A DNA stretch of 55,870 nucleotides from Candidatus Pacebacteria bacterium UBA1364. Lineage in GTDB: Bacteria; Patescibacteriota; Microgenomatia; UBA1400; PJMF01. The DNA lies in contig DBRQ01000009.1 of assembly GCA_002306345.1 (NCBI GenBank), positions 1 to 55,870 of the forward strand, in the 5' to 3' direction. Below are positions 10,563 through 54,168 of the stretch, piece by piece. The notes beneath the pieces are model-generated. The model saw only the letters and a list, made by a program, of their open reading frames with translations. It ran no database searches and was not told the DNA's origin. The first letter of the stretch is position 1; each line of letters begins with the position of its first letter. The position numbers and the translations under genes are program-made.

Positions 10563-10588
10563 GCAAAATTAATGTTTTTTATTGGGGT

Positions 10589-35896: not shown

Positions 35897-36059
35897 CAAG
35901 TATCGATTTTTTCTGGATAGACCCGTTTATTTGCTGTATTAGGTTGATGTGCCCCACTTCTTTTCTTCTAAATTTACCAGATGCGAGTTTTAGAGCCTGT
36001 AATAAATAAGATAAATTGTTATTAGACAAAAACAATGCTACCCATTCAAGGAAAAAGTT

Positions 36060-36971: not shown

Positions 36972-38283
36972 CAATTATATGTTTTGGGTTTTGTAATATA
37001 CTGATTACCCTATCTTTCAAAACAAACTTTGTTTTCAGACAAGATAATATTTGTTGTCGGTCACTACTTGAACCGGTTTTTAAAATATGTTCTAGATAAG
37101 TTTTAGCCATTTCTGTGTTTCTTGGTTTTACAGCAGATAATTCAAATTCTTCTAAGTTGCCTGACAGATATTCTTGATGAAGAACTTCAGACCTTAATTT
37201 ATGAAATCTTTCAATATCGTTTTTAATTTGTTGGGTAATTTTTGCTTCATCGATTTTAATTTTTGGTATAAGGTTGAGTAGTTGAGCAATTAAATCTTGC
37301 TCAGTAATATATGGTTCATCACAGTCGTAATCTACGGTTCTAGTGCAGTGATAGTAGATATAAGAAGCTTCTCCTCCATATTTTAATTTCTTGTGTTTTT
37401 CTTCTGGAATAACTTGAGCTCCACATCTGCCACATGTGCAAATTCCTCTAAAACCATAGCCATTTTTCTTCCAAGTTTTAGGAGTAGTAATTAGCTGTCT
37501 TTGCACTTTCATAAATAAATCATGAGAAATTAAAGGTTCATGAGTGCCTTTATATAAAACTCCGCTAAATTCAAATTCACCGTAATAGAAACTATTCTTT
37601 AAGGTGGCATAGATCTTGCTTAGAGCTAATTGTTTACCTGATCTTGTAGTAAAACCTATTCTATCTAGCCACCGCTTAACCATCCTTCCTGAGTAATGTT
37701 CATTACCAACTTTTTCAAAAATTTGAATAACAAAAGGAGCTCTTTCTTTATCAATAATAATTTCTCTAATGCGATCATTTTTCATAATATTAAGATATCC
37801 AAGTGGAGCATACCCTGGTCTGATCCCCATTTCGCATTTGGCTTTAAGCCCACGTTTAACATTGACTCCACGATTGTCATTTTCTAGTTTTGCCTGAGAG
37901 CAGAGAATCATTAATAAGAATTTCTCATTAGGACTATTGGTGAAGCTTTGTGAGTAGGTTTGAATTTTGAGCAGCTTTCCTTGGTCCATAAGGTCTACCA
38001 GTGAGCCAAGATCTCCAGCATTTCTACTTAATCTATCGGGAGCCCAAGTCAGGATAGCATTGTATTTTTCTTCTTTAATTTCCTTAAGGATTTCGACGAA
38101 TAGAGGGCGGGATCCTGAAGCTTTAGCAGAATGGCTTTCACGCTTTGTTTCAACAACGTCAATGCTCTCACGTTTAGCCAGAGTCAACATCTCTTTAATC
38201 TGAGAATCAATTGACATGGTTTGTCGCTCGTCCGATTCAGAAGATTTACGGGCATATAGGCAATATTTTAGTTTTTCTTGCAT
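36961..38283 (-). CDS. large serine recombinase (integrase)
   Basis: Resolvase catalytic domain YARKSSESDERQTMSIDSQ, ..DRLSR.., a recombinase domain, a zinc ribbon CTCGRCG...YYHCTR, and a C-terminal coiled coil. ATG at 38283 (the track TTG is at 38295). Confidence 0.85.
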   Translation of the reverse strand: MQEKLKYCLYARKSSESDERQTMSIDSQIKEMLTLAKRESIDVVETKRESHSAKASGSRPLFVEILKEIKEEKYNAILTWAPDRLSRNAGDLGSLVDLMDQGKLLKIQTYSQSFTNSPNEKFLLMILCSQAKLENDNRGVNVKRGLKAKCEMGIRPGYAPLGYLNIMKNDRIREIIIDKERAPFVIQIFEKVGNEHYSGRMVKRWLDRIGFTTRSGKQLALSKIYATLKNSFYYGEFEFSGVLYKGTHEPLISHDLFMKVQRQLITTPKTWKKNGYGFRGICTCGRCGAQVIPEEKHKKLKYGGEASYIYYHCTRTVDYDCDEPYITEQDLIAQLLNLIPKIKIDEAKITQQIKNDIERFHKLRSEVLHQEYLSGNLEEFELSAVKPRNTEMAKTYLEHILKTGSSSDRQQILSCLKTKFVLKDRVISILQNPKHIIAIN

Positions 38284-38357
38284 AGTTTCCTTCAAGTAAG
38301 TGAAGGTACCGCAAAGAATTTAGAAGTCTATTGCCAATTTATAATAACTTAAAGATG

Positions 38358-38386
38358 TTGACATAGTTAGTTACAGATAGTAATAA
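38358..38386 (+). promoter_or_regulatory. promoter candidate TTGACA-17 nt-TAATAA, 8 nt before the ATG at 38395
   Basis: Consensus -35 at 38358..38363 and an AT-rich -10 at 38381..38386. Confidence 0.45.
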
Positions 38387-38394
38387 TAAAATAT

Positions 38395-39150
38395 ATGAGC
38401 GATCAAAACGAAAACAATTTTTTTACACCAATACTAAGTGCAATATCGGGGATTGGTGCGATTGTTACTTCTGTTAGTCCAATCATATTTTCAAAAAACA
38501 ACATATTCCCCATTTTTATAGATCCTGAATTGACTACTTTTGCTTCAATAATAGCTGTCGTTATAGTGATTATTACTATATGGATGACGTCATCTATTAG
38601 TGCAATTATGTTGTTTAACAACAAGGGCAACCCAGCAAGCTTTAATTTGAAACTAATAATTATGTTTCTATTAAGTTTAGTGTTTTTTTATTTGATGAAT
38701 GTGTTGGTTAAGTTAAACGCAATAAGTATCCCTATAGCTTCTCTGCTTCAACTTTTGTCTTACCTGCTAGCTTTTCTATTTTTAGCTATGATAGTTGGGT
38801 TTTTATTGAGAGATTCCATAAATAATTCCAAGAGGGAACAGATAGAGGCTACTAAAATGGACAGAATAAAAGAATTATTAATCAAAACAGGCCTAATTAA
38901 GTTGAACTTTAAACTTCTTTCTATAGAAAACTATGTTCCTCAACAAGGAGAGTTTTCAAGATTTGGAAGTAAACAAATTAGAGCGTTAATAGATGGGAAA
39001 GAGTATTATTTAATAGCATCTAGCGATTTTTCTCTTTTGCAACACTCTGCAGAAATACCAAAACAAGCAACTATTGTAGCGGCAAATGTTGCGACAGCAA
39101 ACCCTTCTACAGTAACAAAAAAACCAAAAGTTCTTTTAAAAAAGTCCTAA
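38395..39150 (+). CDS. membrane protein, hypothetical
   Basis: 4-5 hydrophobic spans followed by a soluble C-terminal domain. No motif recognised. Confidence 0.5.
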   Translation: MSDQNENNFFTPILSAISGIGAIVTSVSPIIFSKNNIFPIFIDPELTTFASIIAVVIVIITIWMTSSISAIMLFNNKGNPASFNLKLIIMFLLSLVFFYLMNVLVKLNAISIPIASLLQLLSYLLAFLFLAMIVGFLLRDSINNSKREQIEATKMDRIKELLIKTGLIKLNFKLLSIENYVPQQGEFSRFGSKQIRALIDGKEYYLIASSDFSLLQHSAEIPKQATIVAANVATANPSTVTKKPKVLLKKS

Positions 39151-40568
39151 ATAAAATCAATAATTGGCAAAGTTTCTTTTAGCGATTCTCTATATTCAGC
39201 ACAAGCCATAGTAAAAGCATCTACCAAATCATTTGGACCATCGGGGCTGAATTCAATTAGTTGCAGAATTAGCTCTTCAGCTCCATTCCTTGGAAATAAA
39301 ACTTGAGCATTCTTGATTTGATTAGAGGCAGCCCATAATCTAGTGGTTTTATCCTGTCCTTTAGTGGTTTTACCTATTACTGGAAGTTTACGCGCATCTA
39401 GTTCATCAATTAATCCTGATTGTTGTGCAGCTTTTTCAACAATAATCTTTGTCGCACAGCCTTTATTAAAAGAGTGGTAAAGTGACTCAATGTAACCATT
39501 TAATTGAGGAGCATTTAATCTGCCATTAAATGGTTCTGGGTGGATGTACATTGTTTTTTGATCATTAAAATTATAAATTGAAGCACAAATGATGCCACTT
39601 TTATCAGATCTTTCTGTTGTAGTAAAAGCTGGGTCAACACTAATTAATTTACCAGCCAAATAACGATCATCTGGAAGCTGATCATAATATTGAATCCAAC
39701 TTGGCTTAATAATTTGTTCTTTGCTATTAATAGCTTTTAGTAAGTACTCTCTAGCAAAATCAATTTCAGTCATGGAATTTCTTAATTTATCGATTGCTTG
39801 TTGATTTGGGTATTTATTTTTCCACAAACATTGATCATCTTTGTCTATAAGCGGGTATTCTCTGTATATCCCAGTTCTTTTTCCATTTAAAATTGATTGC
39901 TTTAATCTCATCATTGCCGAATCTCTGTGAACTAGATTGCCAATAAAAATATATGAGGTGTCAGGAGAACCCACTGGAATTAACTCACCATTAACGAACT
40001 CCCACAATTTCTCTCTTTGCTCTAATATTCTGGCTGATTGCACATCTTCAATATCGTCAGCAATAACAAGATCTGGTCGGTAAGCTCCATGCCTAATTCC
40101 ACGAATACTTTCACTTACTGAGACAGCGGAAATTCTAGCTTTTTGGTTTCTTAAAACTAAACTACTTGAATTCCACTCACTAGTTTCTGCTGTAATAAAT
40201 GGACCAAAATCATTTATTAATAATTCGTTACTTTCTAGTTCTTGCCTAATGTTATACAAGGTTTGGTTGGCTCGGCTCTGGTTTTGACTCACAACCACAA
40301 TAAACTTCTTTTTTTCTGTACAAATAACTTGCCATAAAGGCAACATCAAGGTACATAACGTTGATTTAGCACTACCCCTAAAAGCCACAATACAAGAGAA
40401 ACTTGGCTCGTCACTCGTAATCAACCTAATAATTTCTCGATGAAAAGCTGGCGTTTTGTATTGTAGGAAGTGACTAAAATATATAGCTATAAAATACTCA
40501 AAGCTTTGTTTTGCTAGTTCTTTTCTAGTTGTACGATTGTTTAATAACTCAGCCATTTGTTTTTGCAT
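39147..40568 (-). CDS. phage terminase large-subunit-like protein
   Basis: Walker A-like AFRGSAKST, Walker B LVIADDIED, and RNaseH-like nuclease acidic residues (ISVDPAF..SDKSGI, DLVDAFTMA). Confidence 0.7.
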   Translation of the reverse strand: MQKQMAELLNNRTTRKELAKQSFEYFIAIYFSHFLQYKTPAFHREIIRLITSDEPSFSCIVAFRGSAKSTLCTLMLPLWQVICTEKKKFIVVVSQNQSRANQTLYNIRQELESNELLINDFGPFITAETSEWNSSSLVLRNQKARISAVSVSESIRGIRHGAYRPDLVIADDIEDVQSARILEQREKLWEFVNGELIPVGSPDTSYIFIGNLVHRDSAMMRLKQSILNGKRTGIYREYPLIDKDDQCLWKNKYPNQQAIDKLRNSMTEIDFAREYLLKAINSKEQIIKPSWIQYYDQLPDDRYLAGKLISVDPAFTTTERSDKSGIICASIYNFNDQKTMYIHPEPFNGRLNAPQLNGYIESLYHSFNKGCATKIIVEKAAQQSGLIDELDARKLPVIGKTTKGQDKTTRLWAASNQIKNAQVLFPRNGAEELILQLIEFSPDGPNDLVDAFTMACAEYRESLKETLPIIDFI

Positions 40569-40950
40569 CTTTTTCTCCTTGTAATAGCTCTAATGCCAAC
40601 ATAATTTTTTCTTGTTGCTCCTTAGATAAATTTTCTTGATTGTTAACACCACTTAATTCCACTTTGGTTCTATAATCTGGATGGTTGTGTTTAAGCCAGA
40701 AGCTAATTGCCTGAAAGCGTTTGTCTTTAATTGAAGAGATAAGTTGTGATTCGGCTAGATCATTCACTAATGATTTGCCATCCTGCAGAGAATCCCGAGC
40801 TTCTCTAGCGAACTCTTCGTTTTGACACCATCGATAGAAGGTGGCTCTACTGACGCCTGCTTTTTCACAAGCAATTTGGACAATTGGCGTTTTACGCAAT
40901 TGCTCTATTAGACGTTGCTGGTCGGATTTGATTCTTTCTTCGATACTCAT
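40549..40950 (-). CDS. small HTH protein (terminase small-subunit-like position)
   Basis: HTH CEKAGVSRATFYRWCQ. It overlaps both neighbours (4 nt and 20 nt), so the three genes are co-transcribed. Confidence 0.5.
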   Translation of the reverse strand: MSIEERIKSDQQRLIEQLRKTPIVQIACEKAGVSRATFYRWCQNEEFAREARDSLQDGKSLVNDLAESQLISSIKDKRFQAISFWLKHNHPDYRTKVELSGVNNQENLSKEQQEKIMLALELLQGEKDAKTNG

Positions 40951-42278
40951 AAGATTCTTTCTGCCTTTAGACCAGTGAGTTTCTCCCAGCGTTTGCGAAT
41001 AACCTCAGCGTAAGTAGGGCATTTTTCCATTACAAAACAGCGACGCTTTAATTTAGCTGCCGCAATTAAGGTTGAACCACTGCCACCGAAGGGTTCAAAG
41101 AGTAGATCTCCACGCTTAGTTAGAACTTTAATGTAGGGAATAAGAATCTCAATCGGTTTGGTGCCAAAGACTACTCCCTGACCAGAACTCTTTTCATCGG
41201 AAGCATTGAACTCAATAAAGTCAGTGGGCTGAATCTTTTTGCCTTTATCGTAGCCTTCCCATTGTGGTTTACCTGAGATGGCATAGAGGGCGGTTTCATA
41301 TTCTTCTTGCAAGCCATCAACTTCCTCACTTAAGTTGTAGGGCACATCAGCATCTTGAGAAGCTCCAACCATAGCAATGTCATGTTTGCTAAAGAATTTG
41401 TACTTAGCACTAAAACCTTGGTGGCGATTGGGTATGTGCCAAACAAGCATGTTTTTAACTTTCCAATGTTTTTCCATCTCCGCCCAGATGGTGCGTAGGT
41501 TTTTCCAGTTTTCGTAGACAATGATAGAGAAGTGTTCAGCTTGAACTTTAGCAACGTTATCCATCCACAGTTCTGTAAAATTGTCTGGTAGAGAGTCGGT
41601 CATTAAATACTTGCGATCTCTTTTATATCCAAACCCCTCGGTTGGTTTACCATGTTTTTGTTTACCGTGAAGATAGTCCAAAATATATGGAGGATCGGTC
41701 AAACATAGGTCTACTTTTTCTTCAGCAATTAGCTTTAAAACGTCTGGCTCATTTGTAGAATCGCCAATCATCAGTTTATTTTCGCCCAACTGATAAACTT
41801 CGCCAGTTTTCATGGTAATCTCAGAAATTTGTAGCTTAGCTAATTCTTTTTTAAGATCGAATTCTTCAGGAGTCTCTAGATCAAAGTCGAAGATACTATC
41901 AATTTCTTCACTGGTAAACCCAACGTCGCTGAGCATTTCTTCAGAGAATTCTTTAAGTAAATCGTAATCCCACTCTCCAGTAGCTCGGTTGAGTCTAAGG
42001 TTTAAGTCTTTCTCTTTTTCAATGTCAGGAATATTAAGAAAGATAACTGGCACCTCAGCAAAGCCAAGCTCTTTGGCAGCGGCTAATCTCATGTGTCCAC
42101 CAATGAGGGTATTTTTTCTCTCAGGAGCACAGTTGGCGATTAGTGGATCTACCAAACCATGTCTAGTAATGCTTTCTTTAAGCCTTTCTAGAGCGTCTTT
42201 ATCCCATTTTCTTGGGTTATAGGTGGCTGAGTTAAGCTCCTCAATTTTGATTTGTACTACATCAAGCTTGTTGTTCAT
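40947..42278 (-). CDS. ParB-like nuclease domain fused to an N6/N4 DNA methyltransferase
   Basis: ParB-N: NPRKW, GLVDPLI, GGHMRLAAAKELG. Methyltransferase: DPPY (LTDPPYILDY) followed by FEPFGGSGSTLIAA. Confidence 0.85.
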   Translation of the reverse strand: MNNKLDVVQIKIEELNSATYNPRKWDKDALERLKESITRHGLVDPLIANCAPERKNTLIGGHMRLAAAKELGFAEVPVIFLNIPDIEKEKDLNLRLNRATGEWDYDLLKEFSEEMLSDVGFTSEEIDSIFDFDLETPEEFDLKKELAKLQISEITMKTGEVYQLGENKLMIGDSTNEPDVLKLIAEEKVDLCLTDPPYILDYLHGKQKHGKPTEGFGYKRDRKYLMTDSLPDNFTELWMDNVAKVQAEHFSIIVYENWKNLRTIWAEMEKHWKVKNMLVWHIPNRHQGFSAKYKFFSKHDIAMVGASQDADVPYNLSEEVDGLQEEYETALYAISGKPQWEGYDKGKKIQPTDFIEFNASDEKSSGQGVVFGTKPIEILIPYIKVLTKRGDLLFEPFGGSGSTLIAAAKLKRRCFVMEKCPTYAEVIRKRWEKLTGLKAERIL

Positions 42279-42391
42279 AAGCTTTCTTTCTTCAAAAAGG
42301 TATTCAAATATTATTATTTAGATCAAAAAGTACCCTTTAATAATATTTTACTGATTTTGCATAAATTTTTTCTAAATTGCTCATCACAAAC

Positions 42392-42421
42392 AAAAACCCC
42401 GCCTGTTTAAGCGGGGTTTTA
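42392..42421. terminator. GC-rich hairpin flanked by A/T runs (bidirectional terminator)
   Basis: aaaaccccgc-ctgtttaa-gcggggtttt, lying between 42444..42935(-) and the ParB-methylase operon. Confidence 0.65.
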
Positions 42422-42443
42422 GAAGTTTTTACTTTAAGAATCT

Positions 42444-42935
42444 TTATTCAACGATCTGGCAGTCTTTGATCATAATGATGCCTAGACTTTGTTCGTTAAC
42501 TTTACCCTTTACCATAACAATCTGATCATTGGCTACATTAAGCAGGTCTTCTTTATTTTTGAAGAAGCATTGTATGCTTGTGCCTGTATAAAGGTTACCG
42601 ACACTGCTTGGTCTTACCATAATAAATGGGTTACCAGTAATATCTTCAGAGATGTTGGCAATTTTACCTTTTAACTGAACACCTTTGCCTTTATATTGGT
42701 TTTCTGCCGATAGCTGATTGGTGTCAAAAGCTTCTATAAACTTGGTAATATCTACTTCTTGGTAAGTTAGTTCTGTCTCAGCTGTTTTTTGCTCAGCATT
42801 AGAGCTATTTGAAGTAGAACTTTTGTCTGAAGAGCCGTTTGATCCAGCAATGGCAATGACTACAATAATAGCCAGTATTACTGTTAATACTTTATGTCTG
42901 GCAAACCAGTTCTTCTTTTTTTCTGGTTCTGGCAT
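42444..42935 (-). CDS. membrane-anchored OB-fold (tRNA_anti-like) protein
   Basis: N-terminal TM helix, a Ser-rich linker, then NQLSAENQYKGKGVQLKGKIANI, which resembles the tRNA_anti-like OB family. Confidence 0.5.
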   Translation of the reverse strand: MPEPEKKKNWFARHKVLTVILAIIVVIAIAGSNGSSDKSSTSNSSNAEQKTAETELTYQEVDITKFIEAFDTNQLSAENQYKGKGVQLKGKIANISEDITGNPFIMVRPSSVGNLYTGTSIQCFFKNKEDLLNVANDQIVMVKGKVNEQSLGIIMIKDCQIVE

Positions 42936-43270: not shown

Positions 43271-43334
43271 GTTTTCCTATTTTGTTTACTTATACAAGAT
43301 TTTTCAACCTTTTTTGTTTGTGGACTGTAAGGTG

Positions 43335-43343
43335 TGCTATTAT
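43335..43343 (+). promoter_or_regulatory. extended -10 box TGcTATTAT, 11 nt before the ATG at 43355
   Basis: Read directly from the sequence. Argues for ATG 43355 rather than GTG 43334 as the helicase start. Confidence 0.4.
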
Positions 43344-43354
43344 CTATACAAATA

Positions 43355-45037
43355 ATGGAAGAAGAATCAAGATTAAAAGAAGATAGAAAAAAAGATTCGG
43401 ACAAGATTATAAAGTCGAAATATCCTAAAAGGGTTGTTGTTGCTGGTCCAGGAACAGGTAAAAGTTTTCTTTTTAAGAAAATAATTGAAGAAGAGGTTAA
43501 GAATGGTAGTACCAACTTCTTAGTTATTACTTTTATGGGAAAACTTTGTGATGAACTAGCTGATGAATTAGCCGGTTTATCTAAGGTTTTTACTTTACAT
43601 GGTTTTGCTAGAGAATTTTTATTTAGTCAGTTAAGTAACAAAGATGAATGGGTTTATCAAACAAATATAAAGGATATTATTTTTGAAGATTTAAAAATTA
43701 ATAGTATAGATAATTGCAAAATTGAAGATGATTCTTATCATGAAAGAACTAAGTATTATAAAGCAGTTGGACACGATGATGTTATTTTTTATGCAAATAA
43801 AATTTTAAAGAAAAAAGATAAAGTACCAAAATACGATTTAATACTAATTGATGAGTTTCAGGACTTTAATGAGTCTGAAGCTCAATTAATAGATCTGCTC
43901 GCAGAAAAAAATAGAATAATAATAGTTGGAGATGATGACCAAGCTTTATATGACTTTAAGGGTTCGTTTTCAAAATTTATTTGTGACAAGTATGATGAAA
44001 AAAATCAAGATTTTGAAAGCCATTGTTTAAAATATTGCTCTAGATGTACTGAAGTAATAATAAGCGCTTTTCACAGAATTGTTGACTTTTATAAGGATAA
44101 AGGAAGGCTTAAAGATAGAATTAGCAATAAAGAGTATGTTTGTTTTTATCCTGAAAAAAATAATGACAACAAAAATAATCAAAAAATTATTTTAATAGAA
44201 AATATTCCTATAGGTAGTATTCACAAAAAAATTAAAAGTGAATTAGAAACTTTACTGAAAAATCAAAAAATAAAATCAGTTTTGATTTTAGGTGAAGCTA
44301 CCAGTCTTTCTTCATCATTAAAAGAAATAGCACAAAGGTTAATAGAGCTTGGTTTTAGAAATGTTGAATCATCTTTAAACAATGATGTCTTTGGTTTTGA
44401 AAAGGATATTTTTGATGCTTATAAAATTTTTAACAAAAATAATAATTTAGCTTGGAGAATTATACTTAACAGTCTAAAAGATAGCATTGGAGAATCATAT
44501 TCAGAAATAATCAAAAAAAGTTTCGTAAAAGATTTTAAATTTGTTGATGAGTTACCGAAAGATGTTATAAAAAAACATAATAAAAATGCAAAAACCTTCA
44601 GCAATATAGTCTCAAAGACAAAATGTGGGAGAGATTTAATAGCGGATTCATCTATATCAGATTTAAGTAAGGATTTGGTAGATATTAAGAAAGAAGAAAG
44701 AGAATTAGTTATAGATCAAATTATTAAAGAGACCAAACATTTAAATAGGCCTTTGGCCAATCTAAGTATATCAGTATGTAGTATTTTAAAATCTAAGGGT
44801 TTGAGTGCAGATGTTGTTTTTTTGGTTGGCTTTGATAATGGTAAGTTGCCAAAGGATACTGATGCTAAAGATGGAGAAATTTATCAGATGCTAGTTGCTC
44901 TCACAAGAGCCAGAAAAAGAATATATCTTCTCAATACTATCGGTAGTTCTGTTTCAGAATTCGCAAAAGCAATAGGAGATGACTTAGTCGAAAAAAATAA
45001 GTTTGAAACAAAAAAAAGAAGTGAAGGACAATCCTAA
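43355..45037 (+). CDS. UvrD-like SF1 helicase/ATPase (compact, divergent)
   Basis: VVVAGPGTGKS (Walker A), LILIDEFQDFNE (motif II), IIIVGDDDQALYDFKG (motif III), C-terminal VVFLVGFDNGKLP and LVALTRARKRIYLL (motif VI region). Confidence 0.8.
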   Translation: MEEESRLKEDRKKDSDKIIKSKYPKRVVVAGPGTGKSFLFKKIIEEEVKNGSTNFLVITFMGKLCDELADELAGLSKVFTLHGFAREFLFSQLSNKDEWVYQTNIKDIIFEDLKINSIDNCKIEDDSYHERTKYYKAVGHDDVIFYANKILKKKDKVPKYDLILIDEFQDFNESEAQLIDLLAEKNRIIIVGDDDQALYDFKGSFSKFICDKYDEKNQDFESHCLKYCSRCTEVIISAFHRIVDFYKDKGRLKDRISNKEYVCFYPEKNNDNKNNQKIILIENIPIGSIHKKIKSELETLLKNQKIKSVLILGEATSLSSSLKEIAQRLIELGFRNVESSLNNDVFGFEKDIFDAYKIFNKNNNLAWRIILNSLKDSIGESYSEIIKKSFVKDFKFVDELPKDVIKKHNKNAKTFSNIVSKTKCGRDLIADSSISDLSKDLVDIKKEERELVIDQIIKETKHLNRPLANLSISVCSILKSKGLSADVVFLVGFDNGKLPKDTDAKDGEIYQMLVALTRARKRIYLLNTIGSSVSEFAKAIGDDLVEKNKFETKKRSEGQS

Positions 45038-46631
45038 AAAACAATATTACGAAGATTTATATGATCTTTTTACAATAAAAGAATGTCTTAGAGGTGTTGA
45101 GCTTTGGAAAAAGATTTATCAAAAAAGTAAGACCGCTAAAGAAATAAAAAAAGTTCCCAAGGAAGAATCTGCTCGTGCCTGTAATTTCATGTACAACATT
45201 CATATGCTGGTTACTAAAACTCAGCGATATAAAGATAGAGCGGCAACCATTCAGGGGTGGATTGATAGAGACAAAGCTAGGCAAGATAAGCTAGACAATA
45301 CTCCTGCTCCGAAAAATATAATTTGTCCTAATTGTCAGACTAAAATGGTTACGGATGATTTTAAGATTCTTGAAGATTGGGATAAAGGTGATGAGGTTAG
45401 AGTTTTATTCACATTTAATTGTCCAAAATGTAAAAAACGAGAAGGTATATATGACAATGGTGATAAGCATATTTCTAAACCAGCTCTCTGTCCAAAATGT
45501 CATAAAGAAATTAAAACCACTTTAAAACTAAAAAATAGAGTTTTAACTACCACGACTGAATGTTCTTCTTGTGGTTATAAAAATATTGATATTGATGATT
45601 GGGATAAAGAAGATGTTTGTAGAAAGGCTGAGAAAAAGGCAGATCAAGAATTACTAGATAAATATCGTAGGGAGTTTTGTTTATCTGATAAAGAGGGTCA
45701 AGAAAATATCGAAATGATGGAAGCTATGGATGTAGCTCATGAAGTTAGGTTAGAAACAATGGCTGAATATGACAATCCTGTTTATGAGAGAAAAATGCAA
45801 CTTAAAAAAACTTCAGTGACAGATTTAGAAAAGATTCTTAGTAAGAAAATGGAAGAAACTAATTTTTCTAAACTTAGTTTTGCTAGTCCTGAAATAGATC
45901 GATATGTAATTGTTCCTTTCACTGTACAAAACACCGATGTAAAAAGAAAAGATAGAGAGAGCGAATATCAGCTTAAAAAATTAATCAACCAAAATATCAA
46001 GGATACTAATTGGCGATTGGAGTCTAATGAGATTAGCTACCGATTAGGTTATTTAAGTGGCAGATTAAAGGGCTATGAGAGTGAAGAAGATTTACTTAAA
46101 TTAGCCGGTAAAGAAGAAACTAAAAAGCCTAAATCAAAAATAGATCCAGAAAAAAGACGTAAATATGAAAGCCATAGTTATGTCCAATTAGCACGTTTAT
46201 TTGGTGAGATAGATGCAAAAAGCAATATTAGAAAAAGAAGACTAAAAAATGAGCCAGAAGGTTTCTTTTTAGATGATGAAGAAGGTGGCGGTTATACTTG
46301 CGGTATTTGTGGTGGTTCTCATGAGGGTAAAGATATTTGGTGGCAAGAAGATGGTCTAAGATGTAGAGACTGCTGGAATAACATTAAAAAAGGTGTTATA
46401 CCAATGTTTAAGCTAGATGCTGAAGATTGGGAAAAAGAATTTTTAACTAGGTCAGATATTACCTATAAATATAAAATCCATCCTGCAACAATAGGTAAAA
46501 TGAGAAGGCATGGAGAGTTGGTTGGGAGAGATTTAAGAAATAAAGATGAATGGATTTATTGTGAGGTGTTTTTGGTGAAAGAGAATAAAAAATTTTTTAT
46601 AAAAGATAAAAATAAATATTTAGTAACTTAA
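45003..46631 (+). CDS. multi-zinc-ribbon protein with C-terminal excisionase-type HTH-like segment
   Basis: Three Cx2C...Cx2C pairs: CPNC/CPKC, CPKC/CSSC, CGIC/CRDC. C-terminal LTRSDITYKYKIHPATIGKMRRHGELVG. TTG or GTG start inside a 35-nt overlap with the helicase gene. Confidence 0.6.
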   Translation: MKQKKEVKDNPKKQYYEDLYDLFTIKECLRGVELWKKIYQKSKTAKEIKKVPKEESARACNFMYNIHMLVTKTQRYKDRAATIQGWIDRDKARQDKLDNTPAPKNIICPNCQTKMVTDDFKILEDWDKGDEVRVLFTFNCPKCKKREGIYDNGDKHISKPALCPKCHKEIKTTLKLKNRVLTTTTECSSCGYKNIDIDDWDKEDVCRKAEKKADQELLDKYRREFCLSDKEGQENIEMMEAMDVAHEVRLETMAEYDNPVYERKMQLKKTSVTDLEKILSKKMEETNFSKLSFASPEIDRYVIVPFTVQNTDVKRKDRESEYQLKKLINQNIKDTNWRLESNEISYRLGYLSGRLKGYESEEDLLKLAGKEETKKPKSKIDPEKRRKYESHSYVQLARLFGEIDAKSNIRKRRLKNEPEGFFLDDEEGGGYTCGICGGSHEGKDIWWQEDGLRCRDCWNNIKKGVIPMFKLDAEDWEKEFLTRSDITYKYKIHPATIGKMRRHGELVGRDLRNKDEWIYCEVFLVKENKKFFIKDKNKYLVT

Positions 46632-46636
46632 ATTTT

Positions 46637-47191
46637 ATGTCCAATATACAAATAACTAGAGAAATGGAACATTTAATGGACTTGGTAAGTAGCGGTAATT
46701 ACTCAGTGATTGCAATTGATGGAAATGATGGTGTTGGTAAATCAACGTTAGCTGATGCATTATCAAAAAAATTTGGATATAAGCATATCAATTTAGATAA
46801 CTTTCTAAGTAAAAAGAAGGGTGGTTATTTAAAATATTTAAACTTTAAAAACATTGAAGCTGAAGTCAGAAAACGTTCGAATAAGAAAATAGTTATTGAG
46901 GGGGTTTTGATGAAAAAGGTATTAGAAGAAATTAATGTTGATCCAGATATGTTCATTTATATATCTGACAACGTTTGGATATATCAATGGTCTGAGGAGT
47001 ATGACGGTGAGTATAGCAAGATGACATTTGAAGAAATTATTAAAGACGTTGAAGATAAGACAAATAGAATTTCTAGAATCGTTGATTCCAACCCAAAAAT
47101 TTACAAGCTAAATGGGTTACAGTTTGAATTATACGAATACGCTTTTAAATGTAAGCCATGGGAGAGTGCTGATTTAGTATATGTCAGGTAA
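46637..47191 (+). CDS. P-loop nucleoside/nucleotide-kinase-like protein
   Basis: VIAIDGNDGVGKSTLADAL (Walker A) and KKIVIEGVL (Walker B-like, as in uridine-kinase / dNK-type folds). Confidence 0.6.
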   Translation: MSNIQITREMEHLMDLVSSGNYSVIAIDGNDGVGKSTLADALSKKFGYKHINLDNFLSKKKGGYLKYLNFKNIEAEVRKRSNKKIVIEGVLMKKVLEEINVDPDMFIYISDNVWIYQWSEEYDGEYSKMTFEEIIKDVEDKTNRISRIVDSNPKIYKLNGLQFELYEYAFKCKPWESADLVYVR

Positions 47192-48200
47192 AAAACGAAC
47201 AAACAACACTGAATTAAAAACCAAGGTAGGTGAGGCTAAAAATGCTGAGGTAGCTGGTAGCTATTTTAGTGCAGCAATTTTATATAAAGAAGCACTTGTG
47301 CTTGCAAAAAAACTTGGTAATTCTGAATTGATAAAACTTTGTAAGTCAAAATCTGTAGAAATGAATAAAAAATCTATCGATTCTGGAAATGGTTTCAAAG
47401 AATATAAGTTTTCATATGAGTTCTCAGAAAAGCAAAAAGAAGATCTAAAAAAATTCATGATAGGCTTTCTTAAAGAAAAAGACAAAACAGTTGTTTTAAA
47501 AAGGATTGGATTGTCTTCATTTTTTATCCCAAAAGTAGATCAGATAGAATTAATTGCGAAAAACAACATGCCTATTTCTCATATATTCGCAACACTTAAT
47601 TCTATTTCTAATCAAGGTCATAATTTAAGAGGTGGATCTCTTGGCGGGTATTCATGGTTTATGTCTATGTATGATATTAATCAAGAAAACATAATGTCCA
47701 TGCTAAGTAATTTGATTTATTCTTTAATTTATAAAAATCAATATGGAGATAATATGAAAATATCTGAAATAAATGACTACTTTTCGCAGTCCCAACTATT
47801 TAATGATAGCCAATTGAAGATAGTCAAAGTTGGATTAAAAAAATATTATGAAGAGGACTACGTATCAGCTCTTCATATATTAGTTCCTCAGTTTGAATCA
47901 TTTCTGTTAAGTGTAGTCGAAAAACTTGGAATTAATATTGTTGCTTTGGACACGTCAATGGATATGGCAACTAGAACGAAGGTTTTATCAGAAAGAGATT
48001 TCGATTCTCAAGATTTTATTAATATATTTGGAAAAGATTTTTGCAAACAAATTAAATTTATATTGTTTGAGCCAATGGGATATAAATTGCGACACAAAAT
48101 AGCACACGGTGAAATATCGGCAAATGAGTGTAACTTTCAGAATGCAACACTTATTTTATATCTATATCTGGTAGTTTTAGCTAGAGTTGTGAAGAAGTAA
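47181..48200 (+). CDS. HEPN-motif protein (DUF4209-like by recollection)
   Basis: C-terminal YKLRHKIAHGE, giving an Rx4H motif at nt 48090..48107, preceded by LVPQFESFLLSVVEKLG. Overlaps the upstream gene by 11 nt. Confidence 0.6.
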   Translation: MSGKKRTNNTELKTKVGEAKNAEVAGSYFSAAILYKEALVLAKKLGNSELIKLCKSKSVEMNKKSIDSGNGFKEYKFSYEFSEKQKEDLKKFMIGFLKEKDKTVVLKRIGLSSFFIPKVDQIELIAKNNMPISHIFATLNSISNQGHNLRGGSLGGYSWFMSMYDINQENIMSMLSNLIYSLIYKNQYGDNMKISEINDYFSQSQLFNDSQLKIVKVGLKKYYEEDYVSALHILVPQFESFLLSVVEKLGINIVALDTSMDMATRTKVLSERDFDSQDFINIFGKDFCKQIKFILFEPMGYKLRHKIAHGEISANECNFQNATLILYLYLVVLARVVKK

Positions 48201-49217
48201 CTAAATCCATTTAAATAAATTGTATATATTGGTAAAATCTGGTTTTTTAATTGGTTCTAGAGCTTTTAAATCGACTAATGATTCAACCACATAGTTATAA
48301 AATACAATATCAGCAACTATTGACTGAGTTATCCAATTGCTGTAGATAAGTTCTGTAAATTTTATATTATCTCCATGAACAATTGAGTTCCTAAGTTTGT
48401 AAAATTTCCAGCACCACCATGCTGGATTGCTGAGTGTTTTATTATCCTTTTTCTTACCATATTTTCTTGTTCTTTTTTTAAACCTTGCTTCTGTTAGTTT
48501 TTTTTCAACAGACTCAGCAAAATAAATTGATTTATCTGAGATATTTGGTATATCTAAAATAATTTCAAACGCTGAAGCAAGCATTATTATTTTAAAAAAT
48601 GGGGAAACTGAATCATTTTCTATGTGTGCTAAACGAAACCATTCTAAGGATCTAAATAATCTATTTTTAAATCTTTTATTTTTTTGTGAATTAATTAATT
48701 TGTTTATTGCCAGTAGAACATCAATATTGATATTTCTAAAAAATCCACCAGTTGACCATGGTTTTTGAAAATTAACTTCCTTTAAGGTCCATCCTCCGCT
48801 TATAGCGCTTCCTGACCTTATTGCAATTCCATCACTTCCTGCTACAAAATTTTGATACTTCATATCAAAAATGTCAGCACTGGGAGGACCAACGCTGTAA
48901 TTATTCATATTTAGGGCAATTCTTGACTGTTCAGAAATGCATAGGAAACAAAGAATGTTTCTAGCAGAATTAACTTCTTGGTATTGTTCATTGGTTAGTT
49001 GCTTAAAGTTATTTTTATCTTTGAAAGAAACAATTGTAAGCTCTTTAACAGGTTGCAAATGCTCATCTACGTAACAATTTACGTATTCATCAAGATAATT
49101 TTTTATTTCTTGGTCGTGAACCAAATCAGATTTATATTTCCAAAATATTACATTACCTATTTGTAGGTTTTTTATAGAAATCCAAGGAAGCAAAGATACC
49201 TGATCAACTATGTCCAT
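48201..49217 (-). CDS. HEPN-motif protein (Abi/ApeA-like C-terminal domain)
   Basis: FYKLRNSIVHGDN, giving an Rx4H motif at nt 48375..48392 in an all-helical C-terminal region. Its stop codon abuts the stop of 47181..48200. Confidence 0.6.
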   Translation of the reverse strand: MDIVDQVSLLPWISIKNLQIGNVIFWKYKSDLVHDQEIKNYLDEYVNCYVDEHLQPVKELTIVSFKDKNNFKQLTNEQYQEVNSARNILCFLCISEQSRIALNMNNYSVGPPSADIFDMKYQNFVAGSDGIAIRSGSAISGGWTLKEVNFQKPWSTGGFFRNINIDVLLAINKLINSQKNKRFKNRLFRSLEWFRLAHIENDSVSPFFKIIMLASAFEIILDIPNISDKSIYFAESVEKKLTEARFKKRTRKYGKKKDNKTLSNPAWWCWKFYKLRNSIVHGDNIKFTELIYSNWITQSIVADIVFYNYVVESLVDLKALEPIKKPDFTNIYNLFKWI

Positions 49218-49328
49218 TTACTAACTCAATTATTAAACTGATTTGCTATATTAGCAAGGAATTATTCCATGCTGTTTCATTCATATTGTCTTCAGTATAA
49301 TTCATTATTGTAGTTCCTATGCGGAAGT

Positions 49329-50294
49329 TTGATCTCGACTCGAATGTGCGAAATAAATATTATGAATAAAAGAAAATTTACTACTGAATTCGGAATAAAT
49401 TTTGTTTGTACGCACCTGACTTTATTACAACAGGACCACCTTGCAACTCAAATTATCCCAAATTTAAAAAATAGCTCAATATACTTCATTTGTTCTAGAC
49501 CTAAGATAACAATAGACATGAAAAACATTAAACAAACTGAAAATTCTTTATCAGGTAATTTTATTGTGCATAGAGGTGACAACCAATACAGTTATCCTTT
49601 TTCAATGAGCTTTCCAGAAAATTTTAAGGTTAAACTAATATGTGATTACCCATATACAGAATACAAGCTTTTCGTAAATGATCATATTTTTTCTGAAGGG
49701 CTGGTTTCGAATCAAGCAACTTTAATTAATGACGATATTCAAAATGAAGTTCCACTAGAAGTGATTTATATTGGGCAATCATTTCCCCACAATGGACGGA
49801 CAATAAAAGATAGATTGCTTAATCACTCGACTTTACAAAAAATTTATGCAGAAAATAATAAAGAAACTCCAGATAATGATATTTATATTATAATTGCCAC
49901 TTTTGAAGATGTAATTCTTGGAGCAATTGACGGAAAGTCTAAAGTAGAAACAACCGAGAAACAAAATGATGATCATACCATTATGGTGTTGGAGAAAGCT
50001 TCAGAAGAAGAACAACAACGAACCAATATTATTGAAGCAGCATTAATAAAATATTTTAGACCAAAATATAATCTTAAATTCATAGACAAGTTTCCGGACA
50101 AGAAACATAATTCATATAAAAGCTATTATGAATTAGATATTAATAGAGTGCTTTTCGAAATAAATACTGAAGTTATAAAAGCTAAAATAAAGAGTGCCAT
50201 TGTTGCTCCAGAATGGACACACTTTGCCGATTTTCCTCTTGAGAATAAGTCCAAAAAAAACGATTTACTTCATTTTATGGGTTTAAGCGAATAA
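49329..50294 (+). CDS. GIY-YIG-like nuclease domain protein
   Basis: EVIYIGQS (nt 49761..), RTIKDRLLNH, NIIEAALIKYFRPKYN (Glu/Asn block). The N-terminal ~130 aa are unassigned. The start is uncertain (TTG 49329, ATG 49344 or ATG 49362). Confidence 0.5.
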   Translation: MISTRMCEINIMNKRKFTTEFGINFVCTHLTLLQQDHLATQIIPNLKNSSIYFICSRPKITIDMKNIKQTENSLSGNFIVHRGDNQYSYPFSMSFPENFKVKLICDYPYTEYKLFVNDHIFSEGLVSNQATLINDDIQNEVPLEVIYIGQSFPHNGRTIKDRLLNHSTLQKIYAENNKETPDNDIYIIIATFEDVILGAIDGKSKVETTEKQNDDHTIMVLEKASEEEQQRTNIIEAALIKYFRPKYNLKFIDKFPDKKHNSYKSYYELDINRVLFEINTEVIKAKIKSAIVAPEWTHFADFPLENKSKKNDLLHFMGLSE

Positions 50295-50316
50295 AATTCT
50301 TTTATACAGTGTTATT

Positions 50317-50343
50317 TGTTCTATAGCTAACTAATATAGAACA
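50317..50343 (+). terminator. 9-bp hairpin tgttctata-(9 nt)-tatagaaca downstream of the GIY-YIG gene (terminator or operator)
   Basis: Perfect inverted repeat read directly. Only a weak T tract follows it. Confidence 0.3.
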
Positions 50344-50461
50344 TTAATTGTTACGTTGTATATTTATCTGTCTCGCTGATGCAATATGGATTTTAAGATT
50401 TGAGTAAATAGTAAAACAGAAAAGCAGGATTATTTTGTTTCTAAGTGATAAACTTTACATA

Positions 50462-52858
50462 ATGCGAAACTTTTTTGTTCATTCTAATGAGTTCAAAGAA
50501 CAAAACAAACGTCCAATGGTTGCAGCGATGCTAGCTGTGTTTTTTGGTCCGCTTGGTTTTCACAGGTTTTATCTGAAACGTTATACCTCTGGCTTAATTT
50601 TTTTTATTTCTACTGTTCTGTCATCCGGTGCACTTATGGTAATAACAATTCCAATCTCATGGATTGAAGCAATCTATTATGCCTATATTCAACAAAAAAG
50701 GGTGAATAAACAAAAAGCTCAAAGAATAGATAGTAATAATACAAATGCGACAAATTTTGCTAATCTTTTTTCTAATTATGGAGCAGGAGACTCTACGGAT
50801 GAGAATGGTATTCCAGACATTAAACATTATCAAATACCTGCCATTTCCCCTGCTTTAGAGAAACAACTAAGTTCATTGCAAGGAATTGTTGCTTCATTGG
50901 AGGATCAATCAAAAAATTTATTGCAATCTAATTATGATTTGCAGAAAGCATATAAGGTTGATTACCACAAAGAGCTTAATGAGAATCAGTTTTTGGCAGC
51001 AACTAATATTGATGGGCCAATGCTCGTCATTGCTGGTGCCGGTAGTGGCAAAACTAGAACCTTAACTTATAGAGTAAGTTACCTTTTAGAGAATGGTGTC
51101 AAACCTCATAGAATTTTGCTTTTAACTTTTACTCGTAAGGCTGCTAATGAAATGTTAGATCGTGTGACTCAATTAACCAATAATCAATCAGCCAAAATGG
51201 TAGACGGTGGAACATTTCATGCCTTCGCTAATAAAGTTTTGCGTAAATACGCCAGACTTATTGATATCGAGCCAAACTTTACTATCATAGATAGCAGTGA
51301 CTCTGCAGACGCAATTAATTTGGTTCGTCACGCATTAAACATTAAAAAGAAAAAAGATGAGCTCTTTCCTAAAAAAACACAGCTGCAAAACATTATTTCT
51401 GGTTCTAGAAACAAATCACTTTCTATTGAGGAATATGTAAAAAAAGAATATCCGCGATTTACTCCGCACATAGATGTTATAGAGCAGATTGCTCGGGCAT
51501 ATCACGAATACAAAAGGACTACTAATATTTTTGATTACGATGATCTTTTGGAAGTATTTCTTGAGAAAATGAAGTCTAATGCAGACTTTTGCAAACAGGT
51601 GCAGAGTAGTTATGATTATGTCCTAATTGATGAGTATCAGGACACTAATATAACGCAAGCAGAGTTAATTGGAGTTTTAGCAAAAAATCATAATAATATT
51701 TTTGTGGTGGGTGATGATGCACAAAGTATCTATGCTTTTAGGGGAGCAAATTTTGTCAATATCCTCAAATTCCATGAGCAATTTCCAGGGGCAAAAGTCG
51801 TTAAACTCAACGAAAATTATAGAAGCAATCAAGAAATTCTCAATTTTTCGAATGCAGTAATAAATGAGGCAACATTAGGCTATAAGAAATCTCTATATTC
51901 ACAGAAAAATGCTGGATATAAACCGCAAGTGTATCGATTTGCCGATGAGTTAAGAGAAGCATCTTGGATAGCAGATGAAATTGAAAAAGAACACGATTCT
52001 GGAAATAAACTCAAAAATATTGCTGTATTATTTAGAGCGTTTTACCATAGCAACTTTCTTCAAGCTGAATTAATGAAACGTAATATTCCTTTTGTGACAG
52101 TGGGTGGAATAAAATTTGTTGAGCGAAAACACGTCAAAGACGTCATGGCATATTTACGTGTTACTGCAAATTTTAAAGATTCATTGGCTTGGAATCGCAT
52201 TTTAACAATGATTCCTAATATTGGAGATAAAACGGCAGCAGATATTTCACTTCAAATTAGGAAACAAGAATTTAATGCAACTGGTTTTACAAAAAAGAAT
52301 TTTTATACGGACTTAGTTAACTTATTATCGTTATTGCAGTCGATTAAAGAGGCACCAGAGATTAAAGAAAAAATTTCCAAAATTATTCAATATTATCTCC
52401 CATATCTAGAAGCAACAGAGGAAAATGCTGCCATACGCAAGTTTGATCTTGATGCTTTGCAAGCATTATCAGAAAAATACAAAAATGCTCAGGACTTTAT
52501 TAATGATTTCTCACTTGATCCACCTAACCAGGCTTTTCAAAACAAAGAAGTTGATAAAGTTGAGAAAATAGACGACTATATTACACTCTCAACAATACAT
52601 TCTGCTAAAGGCTTAGAATGGCATACTGTGTTTGTGATAGAAGCCATTGATGGCTTATTGCCTAGTCATCATAGTCTTAATACTTTAAACGAGATAGACG
52701 AAGAGAGAAGACTATTTTATGTTGCTATTACTCGTGCTAAAGAACGACTAGCTATCACACTTCCTCATTATAGTATGGGATATAGTGCGTTTTTTAGTTT
52801 GCCATCAAGATTTTTAGCTGGACAATCTAGAGAATATTTTGATTTCTCTGATCGGTAA
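50462..52858 (+). CDS. TM2-domain membrane anchor fused to a UvrD/PcrA-type helicase
   Basis: N-terminal MVAAMLAVFFGPLGFHRFYLKRYTSGLIFF plus a second TM helix (TM2-like). Then AGAGSGKTRTL, VLIDEYQDTN, VVGDDAQSIYAFRGA, TIHSAKGLEWHTVFV, RRLFYVAITRAKERL. ATG 50462 (the track TTG is at 50435). Confidence 0.8.
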   Translation: MRNFFVHSNEFKEQNKRPMVAAMLAVFFGPLGFHRFYLKRYTSGLIFFISTVLSSGALMVITIPISWIEAIYYAYIQQKRVNKQKAQRIDSNNTNATNFANLFSNYGAGDSTDENGIPDIKHYQIPAISPALEKQLSSLQGIVASLEDQSKNLLQSNYDLQKAYKVDYHKELNENQFLAATNIDGPMLVIAGAGSGKTRTLTYRVSYLLENGVKPHRILLLTFTRKAANEMLDRVTQLTNNQSAKMVDGGTFHAFANKVLRKYARLIDIEPNFTIIDSSDSADAINLVRHALNIKKKKDELFPKKTQLQNIISGSRNKSLSIEEYVKKEYPRFTPHIDVIEQIARAYHEYKRTTNIFDYDDLLEVFLEKMKSNADFCKQVQSSYDYVLIDEYQDTNITQAELIGVLAKNHNNIFVVGDDAQSIYAFRGANFVNILKFHEQFPGAKVVKLNENYRSNQEILNFSNAVINEATLGYKKSLYSQKNAGYKPQVYRFADELREASWIADEIEKEHDSGNKLKNIAVLFRAFYHSNFLQAELMKRNIPFVTVGGIKFVERKHVKDVMAYLRVTANFKDSLAWNRILTMIPNIGDKTAADISLQIRKQEFNATGFTKKNFYTDLVNLLSLLQSIKEAPEIKEKISKIIQYYLPYLEATEENAAIRKFDLDALQALSEKYKNAQDFINDFSLDPPNQAFQNKEVDKVEKIDDYITLSTIHSAKGLEWHTVFVIEAIDGLLPSHHSLNTLNEIDEERRLFYVAITRAKERLAITLPHYSMGYSAFFSLPSRFLAGQSREYFDFSDR

Positions 52859-52863
52859 CCTTT

Positions 52864-53193
52864 ATGTTTTATAAAATTTGGAAAACCAGTCTTATTTTCT
52901 TTTTTGTCTTAGTTTGTTTACATTTTCTCAAAGATATTACTCAAGATATATTAAGTGTTCCAACAGTTTTAGATAATCTTGGGAATATTGAAGAAAATAT
53001 TAATTATTTTCCCATGTGGCTCACTTGGTTATATCATTGGGCTTGGGTAAATGCTTTTTTTGCAGAGTTAGCGATTATTTTATTAATCCCGTTGAAATTT
53101 AAAGAAACATCTTTCAATAAAAAAGATTTGTTAATAGTTGTTTGTTTGTCTTATATACTTGTGATGACAGCTATTGCTTATTTTCTACAATAA
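52864..53193 (+). CDS. small three-TM membrane protein
   Basis: 109 aa and hydrophobic. Starts 5 nt after the helicase stop. Confidence 0.5.
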   Translation: MFYKIWKTSLIFFFVLVCLHFLKDITQDILSVPTVLDNLGNIEENINYFPMWLTWLYHWAWVNAFFAELAIILLIPLKFKETSFNKKDLLIVVCLSYILVMTAIAYFLQ

Positions 53194-54143: not shown

Positions 54144-54168
54144 GGGTTCCAGACCCACCTGTTCCGCA
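54144..54168 (+). repeat. degenerate copy of tRNA-Ser T-arm and acceptor 3' end (candidate attR)
   Basis: gggttccagacccacctgttccgca versus tRNA 35874..35898 gggttcgagtcccgccccttccgca: 20 of 25 identical, ungapped, same orientation. Confidence 0.5.

Follow-up and report, generated by a model that had tools for sequence, protein, structure and literature searches.

A TM2-anchored UvrD-type helicase as a predicted single-gene unit in a tRNA-Ser island of Shapirobacteria-like bacteria

UvrD-family helicases are textbook soluble enzymes. The contig DBRQ01000009.1 of Candidatus Pacebacteria bacterium UBA1364 (assembly GCA_002306345.1; 55,870 nt, analysed over its whole length and referred to as the window) carries a gene that encodes such a helicase behind an apparent membrane anchor. 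An initial annotation, made from the letters of the sequence, had described this 807-amino-acid (aa) TM2::UvrD helicase as the middle gene of a unit in which it is preceded by a GIY-YIG-like nuclease and followed by a small membrane protein. The three open reading frames (ORFs) are real and lie where they had been placed, with the ATG of the 109-aa ORF located 5 nt past the helicase stop codon.

The N-terminal TM2 module held up in profile searches, since Pfam TM2 (PF05154) matched residues 24-71 above its gathering cut-off (E 2.8e-10; 40.7 vs. 27.9 bits). Two hydropathy peaks (residues 27-43 and 51-83), with an HRFYLKR loop between them, would be its two putative membrane helices. The helicase proved to be complete as well: UvrD-helicase (PF00580) matched residues 181-451 (E 4.5e-78; 263 bits vs. 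a gathering cut-off of 23), UvrD_C (PF13361) matched residues 456-776 (E 1.2e-61; 210 vs. 25.6 bits), and residues 11-638 of PcrA (1pjr) could be aligned to residues 180-794 across all four subdomains (E 3e-91). In this alignment motifs Q, I, Ia, II, III, IV, V and VI are intact, the motif strings being AGAGSGKT, DEYQDTN, VGDDAQSIYAFRGA, NYRS, TIHSAKGLEW and YVAITRAKERL. The region between anchor and motor, first read as one linker of ~110 aa, does exist but falls into two parts, i.e., a neutral tether (residues 89-125) and a conserved extension (residues 126-180). The latter is alignable with P0003-P0006 and P0021, and tblastn matches to L010 and L011 begin at residue 126. As predicted from its sequence, the 807-aa polypeptide is thus an anchor, followed by a flexible tether, a conserved 55-residue extension and the motor.

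Because an AGGA Shine-Dalgarno-like sequence precedes the TTG at 50435, and because residues 1-88 are retained in six of the six orthologous loci (the window, L001, L020, L018, L021 and L002), the start of the gene does not lie 3′ of the anchor, a possibility that the initial annotation had itself raised. A promoter and terminator scan gave signals no better than those in shuffled sequence. Around the anchor, lysine and arginine residues number five before transmembrane (TM) helix 1, five after TM helix 2 and two to three in the loop, a charge distribution that is compatible with, and favors, an N-in/C-in topology with a cytoplasmic motor (hydropathy and charge being the sole basis).

The selection on these parts was estimated from the ratio of non-synonymous to synonymous substitution rates (dN/dS; Nei-Gojobori), with the window gene compared to ~80% and ~96% identical orthologues. 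The codons of the TM2 module (28-88; dN/dS 0.05-0.12) are under purifying selection comparable to that on the helicase core (codons 181-807; 0.04-0.08), and the extension (codons 126-180) has a dN/dS of 0.11-0.15. The 37-residue tether (codons 89-125) is neutral, with a dN/dS of 0.88-1.69 and 19-24% aa identity vs. the 80%-identical orthologues, and a dN/dS of 0.31 vs. L020.

The initial annotation had also regarded the architecture as unusual, and this was borne out by an exhaustive HMMER search (phmmer) with residues 1-180 against 1.84 billion representative proteins, which was used in place of a word-indexed homologue search that had returned no match with the same residues. Among its 167 hits, the sole UvrD helicase was the protein's own 50%-identity cluster, and none of the other 149 proteins among the matches listed had a UvrD core match. 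Moreover, TM2 was present in only two of the 120 best full-length homologues, i.e., P0001 (97%) and P0002 (80%), scanning genome contigs with the helicase gave only two relatives (33-35% identical), and tblastn with the helicase N-terminus found no match in phage genomes. A cluster look-up for the helicase yielded 3 + 16 member sequences, and since one of these (MDD4382960.1) is named Candidatus Shapirobacteria, the lineage was assigned to the candidate phyla radiation (CPR)/Patescibacteria. Judged by these searches and substitution rates, TM2::UvrD is a genuine fusion that is under selection and very rare.

The genetic context of the gene was compared between the window and five related loci (L001, L002, L018, L020 and L021) of Shapirobacteria-like CPR bacteria, in which the helicase is 80-97% identical. 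The blastn homology of the window to these loci spans 50418/50421 to 52845/52853 only, i.e., from 14-17 nt before the start codon to a few nt short of the stop codon, next to which the window, L001 and L020 also have a short 93-120-bp block beyond the helicase in common. Upstream of the helicase, the GIY-like gene of the window is replaced by Shedu SduA and two 62-aa ORFs in L001 and L020, by a P2-Old-type nuclease (4e-72) in L018, by a 1340-aa Hhe/PDC-S37 helicase-nuclease in L021, and by a DrmA-like 322-aa gene with DUF4325 and type IV secretion system (T4SS) genes in L002. The downstream genes likewise vary. Defence genes are thus present in all six contexts with immediate neighbors that differ each time, and the same helicase gene occurs in islands at two or more different chromosomal sites.

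These comparisons bear directly on the three-gene defence system originally envisaged, in which the GIY-YIG-like nuclease, the TM2::UvrD helicase and the 109-aa membrane protein would act together. The genes are indeed adjacent on the same strand, with gaps of 140 nt and 5 nt, and nuclease plus helicase pairs are common in defence. However, the co-occurrence of the three genes that had been expected was not found, as the DNA homology among the loci (blastn) is confined to the helicase and tblastn detected no homologue of the GIY-like or 109-aa protein near the helicase in any of the five related loci. In addition, the GIY-like family is solo elsewhere, and the 109-aa ORF, whose three hydrophobic segments were recovered by hydropathy only, is a singleton cluster with a sequence confined to the window's own contig and with no family match in Pfam, PADLOC, NCBIfam or PHROGs. 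The GC content also differs across the trio (0.297, 0.339 and 0.264 for the GIY-like gene, the helicase and the 109-aa ORF, respectively), and the upstream neighbors in the other loci match the known single-gene systems Old, Hhe/PDC-S37 and Shedu. We consider such a three-gene system scarcely credible. Separate cargo appears to be the best explanation for the GIY-like gene and the 109-aa ORF, and on this sequence comparison the helicase gene emerges as a self-contained single-gene unit.

The 23-nt pattern GGTTCCAGACYCACNNNYYCCGC has only two matches in the window (0 expected by chance), which are on the same strand, at 35875-35897 and 54145-54167. The latter site is located within the 93-120-bp block common to L001 and L020, and this motif also occurs 130-1300 bp downstream of the helicase in L018-L021. 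An Rfam scan of the window revealed three tRNAs and no other match. We read this as an 18.3-kb island between attachment (att)-like repeats, with the helicase as its putative last conserved gene and a defence-cargo slot just upstream. Between the window and L020, the backbone proteins (terminase subunits, ParB-methyltransferase and Sie-like OB protein) are 92-96% identical and the helicase 95.7% identical, and the cargo is completely different: the window carries GajB-like UvrD, 542-aa Zn-ribbon, 184-aa P-loop, DUF4209/PDC-S39, HEPN-like and GIY-like genes, and L020 instead carries helix-turn-helix, KAP/PifA-like, Zn-ribbon homologue and Shedu genes. The GC content is 0.297 for the cargo, 0.339 for the helicase and 0.359 for the host. 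The locus comparison shows the helicase to be the last backbone gene of a serine-recombinase island family in Shapirobacteria-like CPR bacteria, directly downstream of a slot whose occupant, a single-gene defence nuclease, varies from strain to strain.

Such a position would also suit a gene of the island's own life cycle, i.e., a helicase that unwinds the excised island so that it can be packaged, transferred or copied by rolling-circle replication, with the anchor setting a membrane-bound site of replication or export. Staphylococcal cassette chromosome mec (SCCmec) and Staphylococcus aureus pathogenicity island (SaPI)-type islands come with a helicase gene of their own, and PcrA is required by rolling-circle elements. 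Here, the helicase alone is retained from island to island while the cargo changes, always beside the distal att-like repeat, in an island that carries a serine recombinase, the terminase subunits TerS and TerL and a ParB-methyltransferase; in L002 it is located downstream of T4SS genes, and it matches the phage family phrog_1967 (annotated as "DNA helicase") at E 1.7e-116. Nevertheless, the Pfam and PHROGs scans of the island revealed no recognisable Rep, relaxase or primase. Moreover, since the helicase keeps 80-95% identity beside three backbones (of the terminase, T4SS and DUF2726/recombinase types) and since the homology stops at the gene edges, it has the look of a portable cassette and not of an integrated replication module. 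The type of its anchor is, furthermore, shared with a defence protein (see below) and not with replication proteins. A life-cycle role is therefore the main rival and accounts for the constancy of the gene, but not for its cassette-like portability or for the origin of its anchor, and we regard it as rather unlikely.

The motor belongs to a large clade of ~720-750-aa helicases that share the N-terminal extension, and shares 46-58% core identity with hundreds of "PcrA/helicase II" proteins. Its closest soluble relatives (P0003-P0006; 57% identical) retain a C-terminal Tudor domain (PF21196) that is absent in the 807-aa protein, and their genes are found in a conserved PGK-TIM-x-helicase-DUF348/G5-KsgA neighborhood, which is a housekeeping setting. 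At the sequence level, these relationships show that the motor comes from a clade in which its closest soluble kin are PcrA-like genes of the housekeeping kind, and that the Tudor domain has been lost. The 807-aa protein could then itself be a housekeeping PcrA/UvrD repair helicase that happens to bear a membrane anchor, as its core identity would allow; its GC content, moreover, is closer to that of the host than to that of the cargo, and the small genomes of CPR bacteria may retain only a few helicases. However, the gene is located within an island bounded by the tRNA-Ser repeat and recurs at different chromosomal sites, the NCBIfam equivalog cut-offs are not reached (PcrA 454 vs. 911 bits, UvrD 368 vs. 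1144, and Rep 387 vs. 951), and the RNA polymerase-binding Tudor domain kept by the syntenic housekeeping relatives is missing. A housekeeping role is thus judged very unlikely.

The origin of the anchor points in another direction. Two multi-TM2 repeat proteins aside, the closest non-self matches to residues 1-180 with the N-terminal module are TM2...TerB_C proteins of ~700 aa: the C-terminal TerB_C domain was present in 9 of the 10 that were tested, and a local hidden Markov model (HMM) detected a TerB_C-type C-terminal region in 16 of the 149 other proteins among the matches listed. One such TM2...TerB_C protein (P0243) matches PADLOC SngA and is followed by SngB (7e-156) and SngC (9e-145) genes. 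The anchor modules of the helicase and of the SngA-like proteins align end to end, including the pre-TM Y-F-V..E motif, and an HMM built from SngA-like N-termini alone matches the 807-aa helicase at E 2e-34. By these alignments, the anchor is shown to be of the same predicted type as the N-terminus of the SngA-like proteins of Shango. The latter is an experimentally validated anti-phage system, for the TerB protein of which a survey of the membrane has been proposed (10.1101/2022.11.11.516204; 10.1101/2022.05.11.491447). A Shango variant was also observed in L016 (3820-8799), where a SngA-like protein with an N-terminal TM2 module is followed by strong SngB and SngC matches; the PADLOC SngA model covers only the C-terminal part of this protein (residues 512-757).

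Some kind of N-terminal hydrophobic segment was found in 10 of the 120 closest helicases, i.e., a single helix in P0007, P0009, P0010, P0011 and P0013, and other types of anchor in P0098 and P0119. P0027 (885 aa) combines a divergent TM2-type anchor (anchor HMM E 3e-11) with a UvrD core that is 48% identical; a KAP NTPase gene matching PifA (3e-21) is located 34 nt upstream, with a Schlafen-like gene nearby. This pair of KAP NTPase and 885-aa UvrD genes (L012-L014, genes 5694-7967 and 8001-10658) is present on three metagenome contigs and may constitute a two-gene membrane-associated defence pair. From its sequence, the P0027 lineage is a probable independent recurrence of the TM2-like::UvrD architecture in a defence-type setting.

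We tentatively favor the reading that the 807-aa protein is a stand-alone membrane-tethered helicase that would serve in defence or exclusion, acting on foreign DNA at the inner face of the membrane, although we would place its chances somewhat below even. In this scenario, a PcrA/UvrD-type superfamily 1A (SF1A) helicase would be held at the cytoplasmic face of the membrane by the two-helix TM2 module, to which the motor is joined by the flexible tether of ~37 residues, and would act alone as an island-borne defence or exclusion factor. Tethering would restrict ATP-driven unwinding or protein stripping to DNA whose entry or replication takes place at the membrane, so that the chromosome would be spared by the confinement of the helicase. 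Alternatively, the protein could be an abortive-infection effector, a possibility that the initial annotation had offered beside a surveillance of DNA at the envelope: upon recognition of foreign DNA or of a phage protein by the helicase, the TM2 helices would oligomerise and depolarise the membrane. In several defence systems the effector is an N-terminal TM module fused to a sensor domain, and the conservation of the TM2 module, including its pre-TM motif and HRFY loop, goes far past what simple anchoring needs. The neutral, flexible tether, however, argues against a tight conformational coupling of motor and helices, and we know of no demonstrated pore activity of TM2 domains. We consider this alternative improbable.

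Several points weigh against the stand-alone defence or exclusion reading that we favor. Constancy amid varying cargo is expected of a backbone (life-cycle) gene and not of a swappable defence gene. The membrane topology was judged from hydropathy and charge alone, only the anchor is common to the helicase and Shango, and PADLOC matches to GajB and RTasHel would be obtained with any UvrD helicase. Finally, TM2 domains, defence islands and this family of helicases are all known already; the combination into a TM2-anchored UvrD helicase is, to our knowledge, new, although an earlier description may exist.

A bolder and doubtful version of the stand-alone reading would be a "compact Shango", in which a SF1A helicase tethered by a SngA-type TM2 module serves as a stand-alone immunity or superinfection-exclusion factor at the point of DNA entry and has arisen at least two times (in the Shapirobacteria and P0027 lineages), with the gene marking a defence landing slot in CPR islands and the phrog_15714 family (see below) being a candidate new single-gene defence nuclease. 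More generally, a UvrD helicase fixed to the membrane and under clear selection would imply that the location of a DNA motor can help a cell or a mobile element to tell foreign DNA from its own, and the shared anchor is a concrete lead on the role of the TM2/TerB-type proteins of Shango. The helicase together with the tRNA-Ser repeat also provides a practical marker for defence islands in CPR/Patescibacteria, a group whose immunity has been little explored, and draws attention to a candidate defence nuclease, the uncharacterised ~310-aa family with members in Salmonella, Pectobacterium, Pseudomonas, Bacillus and inovirus prophages.

Table 1. Coordinates of the helicase gene, its parts and the surrounding island features in the window.
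Feature	Position	Strand	Remark
TM2::UvrD helicase gene, 807 aa	50435..52858	+	TTG start, TAA stop; single-gene conserved unit
AGGA Shine-Dalgarno-like sequence	50426..50429	+	5 nt before TTG at 50435; within inter-locus homology block beginning 50418-50421
Membrane-anchor module, codons 24-88	50504..50698	+	Predicted pre-TM motif, TM helix 1, HRFYLKR loop, TM helix 2, IP..IE segment
Polar low-complexity tether, codons 89-125	50699..50809	+	Neutral evolution, conserved flanks
Conserved N-terminal extension, codons 126-180	50810..50974	+	Also present in soluble helicases of this clade
SF1A helicase core (domains 1A/1B/2A/2B), codons 181-807	50975..52855	+	No C-terminal Tudor domain
Orphan-family gene with GIY-YIG-like motifs, 310 aa	49362..50294	+	Independent gene in cargo slot upstream of helicase
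109-aa ORF	52864..53193	+	ATG 5 nt after helicase stop; three hydrophobic segments (hydropathy only)
3′ end of tRNA-Ser, proposed left attachment repeat	35875..35897	+	One of two window matches to repeat pattern
Degenerate direct copy of tRNA-Ser 3′ end, proposed right island end	54145..54167	+	1.3 kb beyond helicase
Island backbone	36961..42935	-	Pfam, PHROGs
Large serine recombinase	36961-38295	-	58% identical in L021
Terminase large subunit (TerL)	39147-40568	-	PHROGs 2.8e-75
Terminase small subunit (TerS)	40549-40950	-	Island backbone
ParB-methyltransferase	40947-42278	-	Island backbone
Sie-like OB protein	42444-42935	-	Island backbone
Variable defence-cargo region	43334..50294		Between island backbone and helicase

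The gene directly upstream of the helicase had been read from a TTG as a 321-aa ORF (49329-50294), but its gene call (P0121) and all homologues begin at the ATG at 49362, which is most likely the actual start and yields 310 aa. Its family counts at least 158 proteins of ~310-325 aa, with a scattered distribution over Pectobacterium, Salmonella, Yersinia, Pseudomonas, Flavobacterium, Bacillus and cyanobacteria. No family in Pfam, NCBIfam or PADLOC covers it, and the gene matches phrog_15714 (no assigned function) at E 4.5e-29. The YIG...R...H...E...N pattern first noticed in it stands, in that Y136, G138, Q139, R151, H155, E225 and N237 (and also R146) are invariant or nearly so across 49 family members. 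The order of the YIG, R, E and N residues is canonical for GIY-YIG nucleases such as UvrC and Eco29kI, and the E-x11-N block aligns with the catalytic E76 and N88 of Thermotoga maritima UvrC. In a PDB profile search, the UvrC GIY-YIG domain ranked first (E 0.19), with Eco29kI at E 1.4, and sub-threshold matches to RE_Eco29kI (10 of the 49 members; best 0.0092) and GIY_YIG_2 (4 of the 49; best 0.0032) involved the only Pfam families matched by more than one member.

The assignment of the fold itself, however, was not confirmed. No Pfam profile of a GIY-YIG family matched the window's protein at E <= 0.01, and hhalign against the Escherichia coli UvrC N-terminus (an approximate query) gave a probability of 36% over the LIxxYxPxYN motif only. 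The predicted model of the protein (predicted local distance difference test, pLDDT, 88.9) had no GIY-YIG or other structural neighbor by Foldseek in PDB and BFVD; a model of the C-terminal half only was poor (pLDDT 73), the predicted sheet being destroyed by the truncation, and matched nothing by Foldseek. The family further differs from UvrC and Eco29kI by an extra all-beta N-terminal domain of ~110 residues before the YIG motif and by the lack of a significant profile match. The GIY-YIG assignment is thus a lead at the level of motifs, and the family a putative member at most.

Since the same slot is held by Old, Hhe and Shedu in the other loci, the GIY-like gene is a candidate single-gene defence nuclease. 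A restriction-modification role, prompted by the weak Eco29kI matches, was rejected, as no methyltransferase adjoins the gene in the Salmonella, Acinetobacter and Agrobacterium contexts. Searching phage genomes with the GIY-like protein by tblastn gave no match. Elsewhere, the family is found solo in unrelated genomes, inovirus prophages and plasmids: in Salmonella enterica (L004-L007, gene 8001-8969) a member is the terminal gene of integrated inovirus prophages, with a tandem prophage pair carrying its own copy in each, and further members lie beside an integrase and a Hachiman-like pair on pAoF64/95 and among transposases on pMsp22.

The remaining cargo of the window starts with a GajB-like UvrD helicase gene (43334-45037; 567 aa) without a GajA partner, which overlaps by 35 nt with the gene of a 542-aa multi-Zn-ribbon protein (45003-46631). 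The latter is without family, but a 51-54% identical homologue precedes Shedu SduA_C in L001 and L020, and it may be an uncharacterised defence component. The stretch from 46637 to 49217 holds three more genes of defence type, for a P-loop kinase-like protein of 184 aa, for a DUF4209 protein that resembles PDC-S39, a PADLOC candidate (5e-14), and, on the minus strand, for a 338-aa protein with a weak Apea-like HEPN match. The island as a whole carries the recombinase, TerL, TerS, ParB-methyltransferase and Sie-like OB genes but no capsid or tail genes, and could be a satellite or a prophage remnant.

In L018, near-identical direct repeats of ~100 bp (9810-9914 and 12664-12770) lie on either side of the helicase gene, and in L021 further copies (1867-1986, 13367-13487, 14075-14163 and 14710-14746) lie between successive small genes. 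These repeats have a tRNA-Ser-like motif at their start and contain a TGTAATATA element resembling a -10 promoter box. They may mark cassette boundaries, or represent tandem att remnants or a promoter in several copies. For L018, an assignment to Gabija was rejected, as the OLD-family gene fits the P2 Old model (4e-72) better than GajA (about 4e-36) and is not placed next to the helicase as a GajA gene would be; the 1.1-kb gap between this gene and the helicase holds a 115-aa ORF on the opposite strand. Outside the island, the window contains a third UvrD-family gene (576-3683; 1035 aa) with weak AddB/RecC model matches in its C-terminal part, which may be a host repair helicase-nuclease, and an 808-aa protein (20963-23389) resembling two fused ATP-grasp modules, a carbamoyl-phosphate-synthase-like one in the N-terminal half and one in the C-terminal half with a match to D-Ala-D-Ala ligase.

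Compared with known systems, the 807-aa protein has the same four subdomains and motifs as the PcrA/UvrD/Rep helicases (1pjr; E. coli UvrD 2is1), and its nearest relatives are annotated as PcrA/helicase II, but it differs from them in its TM2 anchor and tether, its 55-residue clade-specific extension, its lack of a Tudor domain and its island location. An N-terminal TM anchor and a flexible linker that tether an ATP-driven DNA motor are also found in the FtsK/SpoIIIE translocases and the T4SS coupling proteins; these, however, are hexameric pumps with a RecA-fold/AAA+-like motor, whereas the 807-aa protein is of the monomer/dimer SF1A type and has no sequence relationship to them. With Gabija, which pairs GajA (an OLD-family ATPase-TOPRIM nuclease) with GajB, it has in common a UvrD-like helicase in a defence island and strong matches to the GajB profiles; PADLOC found no GajA in the window, which leaves the helicase outside Gabija, and GajB proteins are soluble and smaller. 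In Shango, finally, a helicase function and a TM2 membrane module likewise occur together in defence islands, and its TM2 module of ~90 N-terminal residues is homologous end to end with the helicase anchor. Pfam and PADLOC found no TerB_C, SngB-like ATPase, superfamily 2 SngC or SngA among the window proteins; here, in contrast to Shango, the anchor is fused directly to an SF1A helicase, in one gene and not in three.

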